DNA of 5,567 nucleotides from a virus (Duplodnaviria; Heunggongvirae; Uroviricota; Caudoviricetes): the IMG/VR virus record IMGVR_UViG_2698536379_000014; one strand, given 5' to 3'. Both the position numbers and the translations under genes were made by a program. Every line of letters begins with the position of its first letter. Position 1 is the stretch's first letter. The notes beneath the pieces are model-generated. The model was not told the origin of the DNA and did no database searches. It saw only the letters and a list, made by a program, of their open reading frames with translations. Shown here one piece after another: positions 94-4,277 of this stretch.

Positions 94-1059
94 ATGAAGC
101 TCCTTTTTGCTGAACGCCCGCTGGTTATAAACACGCAGCTGGCGATGAAAATTGGTCTGAACGAAGCCATCGTGTTGCAGCAGCTGCATTACTGGTTGAG
201 AGATACCGGTTCCGGCATGGAATGTGATGGTGTTCGCTGGATTTATAACACAACAGAACAATGGCTGGAACAGTTCCCGTTCTGGTCAGAGTCAACGTTA
301 AAACGCGCATTTGCAAGTCTGAAAACGCTGGGGCTTTTGCGTTGCGAAAAGCTCAACAAATCAAAGCGTGATATGACTAATTTTTACACGATTAATTACG
401 AGAGCGAGCTTTTAGATGGTGGCAAAGTGAGCGAATCCATCAGGTCAAAATGCGCCGCTCCATCAGGTCAAAATGACACGATGGAAGAGACCAAAATGAC
501 ACGCTCCATTGGTTCAAAACGACCCAATGTCATCGGGTCAAAATGGCCCGATGATCTTACAGAGAATACAACAGAGATTACTACAGAGAATAAAAACACT
601 TCTCGTCCGGAAGCTTCGCAACCGGACATGCAGACGGCTGAACAGGATTTTTTAACCCGACATCCTGACGCGGTTGTGTTCAGTGCAAAAAAACGCCAGT
701 GGGGCAGCCAGGACGATTTGGCGTGTGCGCAGTGGATCTGGGGGCGAATCGTGAGTCTTTACGAGCAGGCCGCCAGCGATGATGGCGAGATTTCGCGACC
801 GAAAGAACCCAACTGGACCGCATGGGCCAACGACGTGCGCACAATGCGGATGCTGGATGGCAGAACTCACAGACAAATTTGTGAAATGTTTGGTCGGGTG
901 CAGCGGGATCCATTCTGGGTAAAAAATATCATGAGTCCGTCAAAGCTTCGCGAAAAATGGGATGAACTGGTTATCCGCCTGGGGCGTTCGTCTGTACAGC
1001 GTTGTGTGAATCATATTTCTGAGCCGGATACCGAAATTCCGCCGGGCTTCAGGGGGTAA
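94..1059 (+). CDS. Lambda-O-type replication initiation protein (origin-binding initiator)
   Basis: 321-aa ORF. The N-terminal ~110 aa contain an HTH-like segment (TLKRAFASLKTLGLLRCEK). The middle of the gene encodes the iteron array and A+T-rich repeats, i.e. the protein linker is encoded by the origin, which is the hallmark lambda O / ori-lambda arrangement. TAA stop at 1057-1059. Start context is unusual: a G6 run (88-93) abuts the ATG at 94, so the exact start is uncertain. Confidence 0.75.
   Translation: MKLLFAERPLVINTQLAMKIGLNEAIVLQQLHYWLRDTGSGMECDGVRWIYNTTEQWLEQFPFWSESTLKRAFASLKTLGLLRCEKLNKSKRDMTNFYTINYESELLDGGKVSESIRSKCAAPSGQNDTMEETKMTRSIGSKRPNVIGSKWPDDLTENTTEITTENKNTSRPEASQPDMQTAEQDFLTRHPDAVVFSAKKRQWGSQDDLACAQWIWGRIVSLYEQAASDDGEISRPKEPNWTAWANDVRTMRMLDGRTHRQICEMFGRVQRDPFWVKNIMSPSKLREKWDELVIRLGRSSVQRCVNHISEPDTEIPPGFRG
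436..553. repeat. Origin iteron array, five ~17-bp iterons at 23-24 bp periodicity
   Basis: Direct repeats TCCATCAGGTCAAAATG at 436-452 and again exactly at 459-475; a degenerate copy at 482-498 (TGGAAGAGACCAAAATG); TCCATTGGTTCAAAACG at 505-521; GTCATCGGGTCAAAATG at 529-545. Several iterons have flanking inverted arms (CATTGG 507-512 / CCAATG 524-529; CATCGGG 531-537 / CCCGATG 547-553), as in lambda ori iterons. Confidence 0.7.
559..594. repeat. A+T-rich region of origin, three 12-bp tandem repeats
   Basis: ACAGAGAATACA (559-570), ACAGAGATTACT (571-582), ACAGAGAATAAA (583-594), immediately right of the iterons. This is the position of the DNA-unwinding element in ori-lambda. It encodes the TENTTEITTENK linker of the O-like protein. 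Confidence 0.6.
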
Positions 1060-1099
1060 GTGTTGATTTCTGGTCATGAGGTAATTTTCAGGAGGACTT

Positions 1100-1525
1100 G
1101 TGGCAAAAGTATTTACACAAGAAGAGCGGGAAAAAATTAAGAGGCAAGTTGTTGAACTCGTGCGCCAGAGTGGGCGTGAGACGTTACGACAACTGGAAGC
1201 GAAAACAGGTGCGACAAGATATCTGATGAGCGTTCTCGCCAGAGAGCTGGTTGCCAGTGGCGATGTATACAACTCTGGTTACGGGTTATTCCCGTCTGAA
1301 CAGGCTCGTAAGGACTGGCAAAACGCCCGCAAAAAACTCTCAAGGGCAAAGCTGAAGAAAAAAACATCTGTGGTTGATCCGGACCTTATCTGGTCGTTAC
1401 CAGACGGCGAAATACGCCGCTACGACAGGCGCCTAAACATAATCTGTCGCGAGTGCCGGAAGAGTGAAGCTATGCAGCGTGTACTGGCTTTCTATCAGGG
1501 TAATTTTCAGGAGGCGGTACTGTGA
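1100..1525 (+). CDS. Hypothetical basic protein with HTH-like segment, in the position normally held by a helicase loader
   Basis: 141-aa ORF with GTG start at 1100 and a GGAGG SD at 1091-1095. Lys/Arg-rich, with an HTH-like stretch (ETLRQLEAKTGATRYLMSVLAREL). It does not resemble lambda P from memory and no Walker ATPase motif is seen. Its TGA stop (1523-1525) overlaps the downstream GTG (1522-1524). Confidence 0.6.
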   Translation: MAKVFTQEEREKIKRQVVELVRQSGRETLRQLEAKTGATRYLMSVLARELVASGDVYNSGYGLFPSEQARKDWQNARKKLSRAKLKKKTSVVDPDLIWSLPDGEIRRYDRRLNIICRECRKSEAMQRVLAFYQGNFQEAVL

Positions 1526-1901
1526 GTGAAATTAGCTATCAGGCTTCAATTACCGCTGGCATTCGCATCAAAGGAGAGGAGCATGGAAATATAGGGGCAA
1601 ATCCAACCCTCGTAATCAGGTTAATTTTCTTTATGAGCCATCGGAAAGACCATATTGCCATCACGCCTCTGTTCGGGTTGACGAAAAAGAGCGTCAGGTC
1701 CGCTGTAAAATCTGCGGTGCAGTTGTGGAGCCGTTTGACTGGATGCTCTCTGTGGCGAAAAGAGAAACCAGACTGGCAGATGATGTAAGGCTATTGCGCC
1801 AGGAGGAACAGGAAAGGCGGAAAAATATAGAAAAGTTAATTCAGATTGAGCGTAACGCGAAAGCGCGGATACGCAGGGCGACAAAATCCAGAACTGAATA
1901 A
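1522..1901 (+). pseudogene. Frame-disrupted gene (possible pseudogene, recoding site or sequence error) encoding a Cys/His-motif protein with charged C-terminal helix
   Basis: Three overlapping pieces. (a) Frame-1 ORF 1522..1788 (88 aa), GTG start coupled to the upstream stop, but the region after ~1590 uses rare codons (AGG, ATA, GGG, CGG) and is hydrophobic. (b) A frame-0 reading frame is open 1536..1901 and looks strongly coding (…NFLYEPSERPYCHHASVRVDEKERQVRCKICGAVVEPFDWMLSVAKRETRLADDVRLLRQEEQERRKNIEKLIQIERNAKARIRRATKSRTE) but has no ATG/GTG/TTG before the GTG at 1725 and ATG at 1743. (c) A strong SD (AAAGGAGAGGAG, 1570-1581) plus ATG at 1583 in the third frame reads only M-E-I-stop (TAG 1592-1594). 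Removing one base in 1586-1592 would join ATG 1583 to the frame-0 ORF. Confidence 0.45.
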
Positions 1902-1951
1902 ATAAATTTAGCGCTGTAAATAAAATCTAATCCTTAACTGGAGGTATATTT

Positions 1952-2164
1952 ATGTTAAATACACAGAAAGCCATTAATGCGGAAAAATATAACGAGTGGG
2001 CAAGAAAATTCTCTGAGCAGATTTTTAAAATTACTGGCGATGAGAATGCGGCAAAAAATGAATTAGAACCGTGGACGCCTGAAGGAGCCGACCCAAATTA
2101 TTGCTGGAGGGAGGTTGATCCAGTTGATGCTGCAAATGAAGCTATGAGTTATCACAACGATTAA
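1952..2164 (+). CDS. Hypothetical small acidic protein (70 aa)
   Basis: ATG at 1952 with GGAGG SD at 1940-1944 (7-nt spacing). Net acidic composition (about 14 D/E versus 8 K/R/H). Preceded by an AT-rich intergenic region (1902-1951). No family recognised. Confidence 0.55.
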   Translation: MLNTQKAINAEKYNEWARKFSEQIFKITGDENAAKNELEPWTPEGADPNYCWREVDPVDAANEAMSYHND

Positions 2165-2172
2165 TGTCAGGA

Positions 2173-2190
2173 GGCCGCCCGAAAGGGCGG
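2173..2190 (+). other. GNRA-tetraloop hairpin between two small genes
   Basis: GCCGCCC-GAAA-GGGCGGT: 7-bp GC-rich stem (one G-U pair) with a GAAA loop and no downstream U-tract. It sits 8 nt after the stop at 2164 and 6 nt before the ATG at 2197. Its 3' arm GGGCGG is the only SD-like sequence for the downstream ORF. Confidence 0.4.
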
Positions 2191-2196
2191 TAATGA

Positions 2197-2415
2197 ATGG
2201 TCACATTATTTAGAAAAAAATATCCGCGAAAGAGTAGAACAACAGAATTTCTGTTTCTCATTCTGTTTATCGTGTTGATGATACCGATATCCCCGTTAAT
2301 CCTAGCCTGGATAATCGGAAAAATAATTGAGCCAGTTATTGAATTGTATAACGACGTGGTATGGGCGTCATTCAACACACTGCACAATAAAATTAATCCG
2401 TATAAGGAAAACTGA
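2197..2415 (+). CDS. Hypothetical small membrane protein (72 aa)
   Basis: Strongly hydrophobic core (FLFLILFIVLMIPISPLILAWIIGKII) consistent with one or two transmembrane helices. Very AT-rich coding region. Stop TGA 2413-2415 lies 1 nt before the next ATG (2417). Weak SD, so confidence is limited. Confidence 0.4.
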   Translation: MVTLFRKKYPRKSRTTEFLFLILFIVLMIPISPLILAWIIGKIIEPVIELYNDVVWASFNTLHNKINPYKEN

Positions 2416-2416
2416 T

Positions 2417-2680
2417 ATGGCAACTTTGACAAAAAAAGAACGGGCATGGTTGAACGAATTACAGGAAGTTCTTGATCGCTGTCCATCACCGAAAAAAATT
2501 GGCTTTTACACCATTGGCGATAAAAGCATTTACCTGTATGACCTACGCCGCATGGATGAAATCATGGAGGCTCTTGATAATCGTTCGTCGATGGATTGGT
2601 GTGTTGCTGTTCATGATATGAATGCAGGGTTTGATGAAAAGATTTTGTTCCCCTCATCAGTTGAAAGCACTGCGGGTTAA
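2417..2680 (+). CDS. Hypothetical protein (87 aa)
   Basis: ATG at 2417 preceded by AAGGAAAA (2404-2411). Tightly packed with neighbours. The track ORF 2327..2680 is the same frame with an upstream ATG that overlaps the previous gene and has no SD. No family recognised. Confidence 0.6.
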   Translation: MATLTKKERAWLNELQEVLDRCPSPKKIGFYTIGDKSIYLYDLRRMDEIMEALDNRSSMDWCVAVHDMNAGFDEKILFPSSVESTAG

Positions 2681-2690
2681 GGAGTAACAC

Positions 2691-3560
2691 ATGACCACTA
2701 TTACCAAAGAACGTATTGAATTGTTCATTAAAAATCCGCTTGAAAACGGGCTTACCCGTGGTGAACAAATGGAACTGGCACGGATTGCGCTGGCATCGCT
2801 GGAAGCAGAGCCGGTGGCAAAGATTATAGCTCATTACCCATTAGGGGTTGACGTAGGCAAACAAAAATTCGTACAGGCCATTAGAGAGCTTCCTGACTTT
2901 GGCGGATATCTATTTGCCGCCCCTCCAGCGCCGATAGTGCCGGAAGAAATGTATTGGCAGGATGCGCCAGTTGAAGGCAGCAGCAAAGCGACTGCATACG
3001 CTACAGGCTGGAACGATTGCCGCGAAGCCATGCTTCAGTCCGGAAACTTTCGGGAAAATAAAGATTCGTCAACCAATAATTTTCGGAAAATCCCGGAAGC
3101 GTCAACCAGCTCTCCGGTAACTCCGGCTCTTCTGCCTGGTGGTTTCACCATTGAGGAGGCGAAGGAATTACATGAAGACCTGGTACGCAGCCACATAAGC
3201 AAGGCCTTAAGTGGCGAAAAGATGAAAAAGAAAGATCGCGATGCTGATTTGCGCTGGATTCATGGCGTTATAGTTCAGGCAGCGTGGTTTGTAAAAGCAT
3301 CACTGGAGCAGAATGCACTATCGGGCAACTATCCGGTAACTCCGGATAGTTGGATAAGCTGTAGTGAGCGAATGCCGGATACCAAAACAGCCGTTCTTGT
3401 TGCCAGGGATTTTGGCAGGAAAGGTGACTGGCGAATGAAATGGGCGACTTACATCCCGGGGCATCCTGACGCTAATGATGGGTGGATAATACCTGGTGCG
3501 TCGTGGATACCATCACACTGGATGCCTCTACCAGAACCGCCGCAGGAGGTGCGCCAATGA
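2691..3560 (+). CDS. Phage protein with DUF551-like C-terminal domain
   Basis: 289-aa ORF with AGGAG SD at 2680-2684. The C-terminus (DSWISCSERMPDTKTAVLVARDFGRKGDWRMKWATYIPGHPDANDGWIIPGASWIPSHWMPLPEPP) matches my recollection of the conserved DUF551 signature found in lambdoid phage proteins (ending W-MPLPEPP). The N-terminal two thirds are unrecognised. Stop TGA 3558-3560 overlaps the next ATG (ATGA). Confidence 0.75.
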   Translation: MTTITKERIELFIKNPLENGLTRGEQMELARIALASLEAEPVAKIIAHYPLGVDVGKQKFVQAIRELPDFGGYLFAAPPAPIVPEEMYWQDAPVEGSSKATAYATGWNDCREAMLQSGNFRENKDSSTNNFRKIPEASTSSPVTPALLPGGFTIEEAKELHEDLVRSHISKALSGEKMKKKDRDADLRWIHGVIVQAAWFVKASLEQNALSGNYPVTPDSWISCSERMPDTKTAVLVARDFGRKGDWRMKWATYIPGHPDANDGWIIPGASWIPSHWMPLPEPPQEVRQ

Positions 3561-3640
3561 ACTGGCCTGAAGCATTTGCAATTACAGGCGTTGCTATGGC
3601 TATCGCTTTTTTAGTATATGTTATTTGTCGGTGGGGGTAA
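3557..3640 (+). CDS. Candidate small hydrophobic peptide (27 aa), single predicted TM helix
   Basis: ATG 3557-3559 overlaps the upstream stop (ATGA), with AGGAGG at 3544-3549 (7-nt spacing). Translation MNWPEAFAITGVAMAIAFLVYVICRWG, stop TAA 3638-3640. Too short for the ORF track. Confidence 0.35.
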   Translation: MNWPEAFAITGVAMAIAFLVYVICRWG

Positions 3641-3675
3641 AAACGTTCGCCGGGATTAACACCAAAGGAGGGAAT

Positions 3676-3780
3676 ATGTCGGATGATATATCACTGGCAA
3701 TGGAAGGTGCGCTGGCTGTTGTTGCTGTTGTGGGCGTTTACTGCCTGGTTGTGTTTTTGATGGATCGACTAGGGAACTGA
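3676..3780 (+). CDS. Candidate small hydrophobic peptide (34 aa), single predicted TM helix
   Basis: ATG 3676 with AGGAGG at 3666-3671 (4-nt spacing). Translation MSDDISLAMEGALAVVAVVGVYCLVVFLMDRLGN, stop TGA 3778-3780. Too short for the ORF track. Confidence 0.4.
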   Translation: MSDDISLAMEGALAVVAVVGVYCLVVFLMDRLGN

Positions 3781-3821: not shown

Positions 3822-3858
3822 TTTGCGGTAAAGCGAGAGTTAAGTAGAATTGCTGCGG
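3822..3858 (+). promoter_or_regulatory. Predicted sigma70 promoter and start site of the hok mRNA
   Basis: -35 TTTGCG/TTGCGG (3822-3828), 16-17 bp spacer, -10 TAGAAT (3845-3850). The predicted start near 3857 coincides with the beginning of the 5' element that is complementary to the mRNA 3' end. Confidence 0.4.
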
Positions 3859-3904
3859 GTGCTTGAGGCTATCTGCCTCAGGCATGAACACCAAAAGGCA
3901 GATA

Positions 3905-3980
3905 GAGAAAAGCCCCAGTTAACATTACGCGTCCTGCAAGACGCTTAACATTAATCTGAGGCCCAATCTATGTCTCACAA
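3905..3980 (-). ncRNA. sok: Predicted Sok-like antisense RNA (coordinates approximate)
   Basis: Minus-strand promoter candidate: -35 TTGCCT (plus coords 4013-4008), 17-bp spacer, -10 TAACCT (3990-3985), giving a start near 3978 and a transcript antisense to the mok SD/start (3957-3972). This matches the known hok/sok layout. The 3' end and terminator could not be defined from sequence. Confidence 0.3.
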
Positions 3981-4182
3981 ATGTAGGTTAGCCTCTTACG
4001 TGCCGAAAGGCAAGGAGAAGCAGGCTATGAAGCAGCAAAAGGCGATGTTAATCGCCCTGATCGTCATCTGTTTAACCGTCATAGTGACGGCACTGGTAAC
4101 GAGGAAAGACCTCTGCGAGGTACGAATCCGAACCGGCCAGACGGAGGTCGCTGTCTTCACAGCTTACGAACCTGAGGAGTAA
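3970..4182 (+). CDS. mok: mok-like overlapping reading frame (70 codons) in the hok leader
   Basis: ATG 3970 with SD TGAGG at 3957-3961 (8-nt spacing), 57 nt upstream of and in frame with the hok ATG, ending at the same stop. Its size matches the ~70-codon mok frames described for hok loci. Whether it is translated as an extended Hok or only serves coupling cannot be told from sequence. Confidence 0.4.
   Translation: MSHKCRLASYVPKGKEKQAMKQQKAMLIALIVICLTVIVTALVTRKDLCEVRIRTGQTEVAVFTAYEPEE
4027..4182 (+). CDS. hok: Hok/Gef-family type I toxin (HokD/RelF-like membrane peptide, 51 aa)
   Basis: Translation MKQQKAMLIALIVICLTVIVTALVTRKDLCEVRIRTGQTEVAVFTAYEPEE. It has the family hallmarks: N-terminal TM helix, LVTRKxLCE motif and conserved C-terminal TGQTEVAVFTAYE. 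From memory it is identical or near-identical to E. coli HokD (RelF). SD AAGGAG 4012-4017 (9-nt spacing); stop TAA 4180-4182. Confidence 0.9.
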   Translation: MKQQKAMLIALIVICLTVIVTALVTRKDLCEVRIRTGQTEVAVFTAYEPEE

Positions 4183-4251
4183 GAGACCAGGCGGGGGAGA
4201 AATCCCTCGCCACCGCTGATGTGTCAGGCATCCTCAACGCACCCGCACTTA

Positions 4252-4277
4252 ACCCGCTTCGGCGGGTTTTGTTTTTT
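4252..4277 (+). terminator. Rho-independent terminator of the hok transcript
   Basis: ACCCGC-UUCG-GCGGGU: 6-bp GC-rich stem with a UUCG tetraloop (4252-4267), followed by TTTTGTTTTTT (4267-4277). Confidence 0.8.

Follow-up and report, generated by a model that had tools for sequence, protein, structure and literature searches.

A pseudogene of the phrog_1621 family in a lambdoid prophage of Escherichia coli and the complex indel that probably produced it

Three overlapping reading frames follow the DUF977 gene in a lambdoid prophage of Escherichia coli, and they raise the question of which is the gene and how the arrangement arose. The DNA analysed (the window) is a stretch of 5567 nt; megablast aligns it with the chromosome of E. 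coli 2013C-4465 at 100% identity over the query. On its plus strand, a frame called here phase 0 is open from 1536 to 1901, with 121 sense codons and the stop TAA (1899–1901), and is preceded by a TAG at 1533–1535. This frame is startless for 63 codons, the first ATG, GTG or TTG in phase being GTG 1725. In another phase, a strong Shine–Dalgarno (SD) sequence, GGAGAGGAG, is followed by ATG 1583, GAA, ATA and a stop, TAG (1592–1594). An 88-codon ORF starting with GTG (1522–1788, plus strand) occupies the remaining phase, and its start codon overlaps the stop of the DUF977 gene in GTGA. The original prediction described these frames correctly, and also saw in phase 0 a C-HH…C-x2-C motif with a charged helical tail. 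It ascribed the arrangement to a 1-bp insertion, real or an assembly error, or alternatively to a −1 slip of the ribosome.

The prophage is lambdoid and Rac-like, and the window represents its early-right region. The region is matched in 2391 of 5426 complete E. coli genomes (megablast), and in most of these matches the stretch of the matched record is 36–38 nt longer than the query. An O-like replication initiator (94–1059; phrog_391) is followed by a DUF977/Ren-like gene (1100–1525), which adjoins the gene under study on its 5′ side. On the 3′ side lies a 70-aa gene (1952–2164) and after it, in order, a DUF4014 gene, an 87-aa gene, DUF551 ORFs and a hokD/sok toxin–antitoxin pair, after which a large ORF begins that continues past the end of the window. 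Neither promoters nor terminators were detected in a scan of 1000–2300; the region is the interior of an operon. The 3′ end of the DUF977 gene carries a linker with a ribosome-binding site, GGTAATTTTCAGGAGG (1499–1514, plus strand), which is one half of a 16-nt direct repeat with an exact copy (16/16) at 1080–1095, before the DUF977 start. The two copies thus flank the DUF977 gene, each being the SD for a GTG start 4–7 nt downstream (1100 and 1522), and variants are present at the equivalent joint of other prophages (L008, L010 and L012). The repeat looks like a conserved linker and site of module exchange.

Several other features of the window were observed. Inside the O-like gene, five head-to-tail iteron-like repeats of 23–24 nt (CATCAGGTCAAAATG...) occupy 438–553. 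In lambda, ori lies within O, and by analogy these repeats are likely to be the replication origin of the prophage. A single ORF of 289 aa spans 2691–3560; in the PGAP annotation two features take its place, a DUF551 pseudogene 'missing C-terminus' (2691–3107) and a separate DUF551 gene (3222–3560). It contains near-repeats (3045–3108; 3107–3126/3326–3345) and represents either two DUF551 units fused in tandem or another decayed gene of the block. The hok/sok type I toxin–antitoxin locus (3857–4182) includes a match of 121.7 bits to Rfam sok RF01794 at 3857–4032, hokD at 4027–4182 and a mok-like 70-aa ORF from 3970 that overlaps hokD. A GC-rich hairpin at approximately 4245–4275, followed by a T-run, looks like the terminator of this locus. 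Two short, very hydrophobic ORFs are located in 3558–3780, one of about 27 aa from ATG 3558 (MNWPEAFAITGVAMAIAFLVYVICRWG) and one of about 34 aa from ATG 3677 (MSDDISLAMEGALAVVAVVGVYCLVVFLMDRLGN); they may encode small membrane peptides.

In homologous prophages, the orthologue is a single ORF starting at the equivalent of ATG 1583, which is therefore the authentic start, as had been anticipated. This intact gene is a 357-nt CDS annotated as 'hypothetical protein'. Its product of 118 aa begins MEIKPEDELSNIVLFPVKEDDPRNQ and reads MEIKPEDELSNIVLFPVKEDDPRNQVNFLYEPSERPYCHHASVRVDEKERQVRCKICGAVVEPFDW...KSRTE; annotated examples are WP_009453172.1, WP_000403785.1, WP_000403783.1, WP_001302146.1 and WP_000403788.1. 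The protein matches the PHROG family phrog_1621 (E = 1.5e-56). Of 5426 complete E. coli genomes, 1654 contain the intact 5′ segment (2063 places), and the gene is located 3′ of DUF977 or Ea22-like genes in lambdoid and Stx prophages; an inducible phage with an intact copy is the Stx2a phage ArgO145. In architecture, the family combines a CHCC zinc ribbon with a long helix C-terminal to it. Four zinc ligands, C38, H40, C54 and C57, are invariant across 36 homologues. The family has a conserved N-terminal peptide, E-x-ELSN-V-x-FP, in which F15 and P16 are invariant and E6, E8, N11 and V13 nearly so in the family alignment, and its C-terminus is a nearly invariant NIEKLIQIERNAKARIRR.

Alignment with the intact alleles locates the damage in the window copy. 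After ATGGAAATA, 53 nt (AAACCAGAGGATGAGTTAAGCAATATCGTTTTATTTCCGGTAAAAGAGGATGA) have been swapped for 15 nt (TAGGGGCAAATCCAA), with a net loss of 38 nt. The SD of the 118-aa gene (1572–1580, plus strand), which is conserved in all intact alleles, is retained, and so are the authentic ATG and codons 2 and 3 (M-E-I). Intact orthologues then continue as MEIKPEDE...; in the window the premature TAG follows (1583–1594 from ATG to stop, plus strand). The 15-nt filler (1592–1606, plus strand) replaces codons 4–21 of the intact gene, and the TAG with which it starts is codon 4 of the native phase. The 3′ remnant (1607–1901, plus strand) comprises the last base of codon 21, codons 22–118 (1608–1898) and the TAA; it is undamaged, startless and in phase 0. 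Because 38 is not divisible by three, codons 22–118 now stand in another phase.

The coding character claimed for phase 0 is beyond chance. From P22 on, the translation of 1608–1898 is 100% identical to residues 22–118 of the intact protein of strain 97-3250 (L004); over 295 nt, four substitutions, all of them synonymous, separate the remnant from the intact allele of that strain. Residues 1–3 and 22–118 of the window gene are identical to WP_000403783.1, codons 4–21 being missing. The remnant encodes the CHCC zinc ribbon and the long C-terminal helix, with ligands C38, H40, C54 and C57 all present in phase 0 (YCHHAS...RCKICG), so that the motif and charged tail first noticed in this frame are the conserved core of the family. 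The N-terminal motif E-x-ELSN-V-x-FP is absent; codons 4–21 include not only F15 and P16 but also E6, E8, N11 and V13. No uninterrupted ORF runs from the SD-linked ATG to the stop. The window copy is thus a pseudogene of the phrog_1621/WP_000403783 family and not a functional member of it. RefSeq (PGAP) already records this status: in each of the carriers inspected, 1599–1901 is labelled a pseudogene ('incomplete; missing N-terminus').

The origin of the filler was sought in several ways. There is no second copy of it in the window at up to three mismatches, and its best local alignment in the window, L003, L004 and L008 (both strands) scores 15, against a mean of 16.5 for shuffled sequences. 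The right-hand junction was used to search viral, genome-representative and metagenome collections and did not reveal the filler in any other context. Two simple events were considered and rejected by inspection. A deletion between microhomologies does not fit, as the 53 nt do not contain the filler as a subsequence, and neither does inversion of the lost segment, no part of which has the filler as its reverse complement.

The lesion is rare but not private to one isolate. A 64-nt probe across the junction has a 100% match in 11 complete genomes (12 places), including five O55:H7 strains, two dog isolates and one pig isolate, so that the lesion allele represents roughly 0.6% of the copies of the gene. 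The right-hand junction also occurs in three IMG/VR contigs and one metagenome contig; it was not found in the GTDB species-representative genomes. Both the left and the right contexts are identical in every carrier. The constant left context means that there is no allele in which the 15 nt form part of a different in-frame N-terminus. Eight lesion copies that were compared show no difference across the 319 nt that span ATG to TAA. Upstream, the carriers have modules of three kinds (LexA-type repressor/Cro/YdaT; RacR/HTH/YdaT; DUF1376/P/DUF1627), and downstream they share a block with WP_000935420.1, WP_000256993.1 and WP_000224233.1; there are at least three prophage backbones that carry the junction. 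The undamaged remnant and the identity of all compared copies indicate a young lesion of single origin, and from these sequences we infer one recent mutation that was later moved among prophages by recombination. As a counterpoint, the allele has survived on three prophage backbones and taken no additional damage there; this could point to tolerance or even to selection, and not to youth alone. The exact junction provides a clean identity-by-descent marker for the exchange of early-region blocks among lambdoid prophages (O55:H7, dog and pig isolates).

The GTG frame is a by-product of the same event. In intact alleles it has 27 codons, MSEISYQASITAGIRIKGEEHGNKTRG, and then a stop, and the TGA that ends it sits within the 53-nt deleted segment. 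With this TGA deleted, the frame reads through for 88 codons: codons 1–23 are those of the 27-codon relic ORF, and the remainder is an out-of-phase reading of the broken gene. The sequence for the last 16 residues of the relic (AGIRIKGEEHGNKTRG) shares bases with the SD and ATG of the 118-aa gene. In other mosaics this AGIRIKGEEHGNKTRG sequence forms the 3′ end of a full-length gene situated upstream, one for an RseB-domain or ead/Ea22-like protein that ends ...LRVAGIRIKGEEHGNKTRG. The other by-product is the GTG-started fragment of 58 aa (1725–1901, plus strand), which comprises the helix only and lacks both C38 and H40 of the first knuckle and both cysteines of the CxxC. Both products have been deposited: the 88-aa one as a 'hypothetical/uncharacterised protein', in a cluster of 13 near-identical members that all come from the lesion allele, and the 58-aa one in the old annotation of the O55:H7 strain CB9615, as the 'putative bacteriophage protein' ADD56532.1. 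These O55:H7 'proteins' are annotation artefacts of the lesion and should not be treated as proteins.

With high confidence, we regard the locus as a pseudogene of a widespread lambdoid-prophage gene, produced by a single complex indel. This indel replaced the 53 nt directly behind codon 3, and the 15 nt that took their place are unrelated. A ribosome that initiates at the preserved SD and ATG would meet TAG as codon 4 and yield only Met-Glu-Ile, and the other 97 codons (1608–1898) have been pushed to another phase, where the first start comes 63 codons into the open frame. Loss of the relic TGA has extended the 27-codon ORF out of phase to the 88 codons reported by ORF callers. The lesion allele would then have been carried among prophages within a recombining block. 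The 118-aa protein would not be made, and to judge from the sequence the prophage probably lacks this accessory function.

The 1-bp insertion originally proposed in the A/T-rich run 1586–1592, whether a true mutation or an error, would split an ORF starting at ATG 1583, and removal of one base there does join this ATG to phase 0. A gene disrupted by a frame-changing lesion just after codon 3, and a genuine pseudogenizing mutation, were indeed what was found. The lesion itself is of a different kind, being the 53-to-15-nt replacement seen in the alignments, and the product repaired by removal of one base would begin MEYRGKSNPRNQ, which is absent among 150 homologues; all full-length relatives have E-x-ELSN-V-x-FP instead. 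The identical junction in 11 independent complete genomes and in the four additional contigs excludes an assembly error, and the probability that a 1-bp insertion accounts for the locus is negligible. We give equally little credence to the 88-aa GTG ORF as a real gene. It has a good SD (AGGAGG, 1509–1514), is coupled to the DUF977 stop and was deposited as a hypothetical protein. Its PHROG matches, however, are limited to residues 2–23 and are all to short relic ORFs, residues 24–88 are an out-of-phase reading of a conserved gene, its near-identical relatives all carry the lesion, and the frame has 27 codons in the 1654 genomes with the intact allele. It had rightly been ranked as the least plausible of the three frames. 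Programmed recoding to a fused protein, by a −1 shift at 1681–1689 from the GTG frame or a +1 shift at ATA-TAG-G (1589–1595) from the ATG frame, is extremely improbable. For both shifts the direction is right to enter phase 0, and for the second the ATA codon is rare and followed by a stop, a context able to favour +1 events. In intact homologues, however, the GTG frame is only 27 codons long and stops well short of the motif, and the two-frame arrangement was not found conserved in diverged homologues. Because all lesion carriers are identical by descent, they provide no independent conservation of the frame arrangement. The sequence ACG-AAA-AAG is present at 1681–1689 (plus strand) in the GTG phase as described; its likeness to a slippery site is coincidental, the A-run belonging in phase 0 to GAC-GAA-AAA-GAG (D-E-K-E), a conserved stretch of the protein. 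Either recoded product would lack residues 4–21, and with them the invariant F15–P16. We conclude that there is no evidence for programmed recoding.

The remaining alternatives grant the lesion and suppose that the remnant is still of use. A functional helix-only peptide of 58 aa made from GTG 1725 would explain why the remnant persists undamaged in several prophages; the ORF exists, the helix is the most conserved part of the family and there is no further damage. Inspection reveals no SD-like purine run before GTG 1725, all four zinc ligands are missing from the peptide and, with zero divergence among copies, youth alone explains the persistence. That E. coli and Shigella hold many further truncated or fused versions of the gene also speaks against it, indicating frequent loss without consequence, and we consider such a peptide very unlikely. 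A more elaborate version, in which the lesion allele is alive through this peptide or through a low-level +1 product (M-E-I-R-G-K-S-N-P-R-N-Q...) that alters or antagonizes intact paralogues in co-resident prophages, is very unlikely. If true, it would account for the spread of an undamaged remnant across three prophage backbones. If the locus is, as preferred here, a pseudogene, its biological weight is small, as it merely adds to the decayed accessory genes of mosaic E. coli prophages.

The intact family deserves study more than the broken copy, as it is present in approximately 30% of complete E. coli genomes and across the Enterobacterales. Its members, typically of 114–132 aa and 45–100% identical, are encoded by temperate phages and prophages of Escherichia, Shigella, Salmonella, Klebsiella, Kluyvera, Yokenella, Serratia, Erwinia, Yersinia and Pluralibacter, and more distant ones by phages of Enterobacter, Hafnia, Providencia, Cronobacter and Morganella. 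The AlphaFold2 model of the intact protein (mean pLDDT 75.6) has two short beta-hairpins at 43–54, a low-confidence N-terminus and one helix at 63–117 (pLDDT >90), which is both the most conserved and the most confidently modelled part of the family. There was no PDB match by sequence profile, and no NCBIfam model and no PADLOC defence model matched the protein. The RefSeq accessions of the family and phrog_1621 are mentioned in no paper, and a literature search for DUF977 with prophage returned nothing relevant. As a working inference, the protein may be a small zinc-ribbon adaptor that oligomerizes via its long helix and contacts a partner via the conserved N-terminal peptide.

The 118-aa gene is broken in varied ways in E. 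coli and Shigella (L002–L007; proteins P0033–P0061). Strain OkiPb01690 (L005) has an internal stop within it, some copies have C-terminal truncations with foreign tails, which suggest insertion elements, and others are fused to DUF977 or Ea22-like sequences. Some prophages are without any copy. In E. coli strain 142 (L008, 1576–1682) the gene is absent, and DUF977 is followed by a GTG ORF of 20 codons, MSQINNRNFVKRKHNPNLNN, whose 3′ end ...AATCCAAATCTGAATAA resembles that of the 118-aa gene, ...AATCCAGAACTGAATAA; this ORF may be an older deletion scar. These observations suggest frequent and tolerated loss. As the gene is so often truncated or fused, it appears dispensable for prophage maintenance.

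The locus can be compared with four known cases. The −1 programmed frameshift of dnaX uses the heptamer A-AAA-AAG with an upstream SD and a downstream stem-loop. The window resembles it in that the GTG ORF has an AAA-AAG pair in phase, from which a −1 shift would lead into the long frame. Unlike dnaX, the window has G-AAA-AAG at 1683–1689, which does not fit the pattern X-XXY-YYZ, and here the original prediction was mistaken about the likeness. It was right that a convincing downstream structure is lacking: the 81 nt at 1690–1770 fold no better than shuffled sequences (z = −0.32; 67 of 200 shuffles fold as well). The arrangement is also absent from intact homologues. The +1 frameshift of prfB depends on a P-site tRNA able to re-pair in the +1 frame, a poor A-site stop and an SD about 3 nt upstream. 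By inspection, the tRNA decoding AUA is unable to re-pair with UAU, and the SD of the window, ending at 1580, is about 8 nt before the ATA codon instead of 3 nt. The zinc ribbon of the intact protein resembles the TFIIB type in its four ligands and two beta-hairpin knuckles, with weak matches both in sequence (PF08271, 21.5 bits, below the Pfam cut-off of 29) and in fold (Foldseek against the PDB, best 1pft, the TFIIB ribbon, E = 0.5, and nothing at E ≤ 0.001). It differs in the ligand pattern, C-x-H...C-x2-C and not CxxC...CxxC, and in the 55-residue helix that follows the ribbon. Finally, the other decayed copies (P0040, P0045, P0050 and P0058) have in common with the window allele that the same gene is inactivated in a prophage; they are C-terminal truncations or fusions with other breakpoints, whereas the window allele is a complex indel at the 5′ end.
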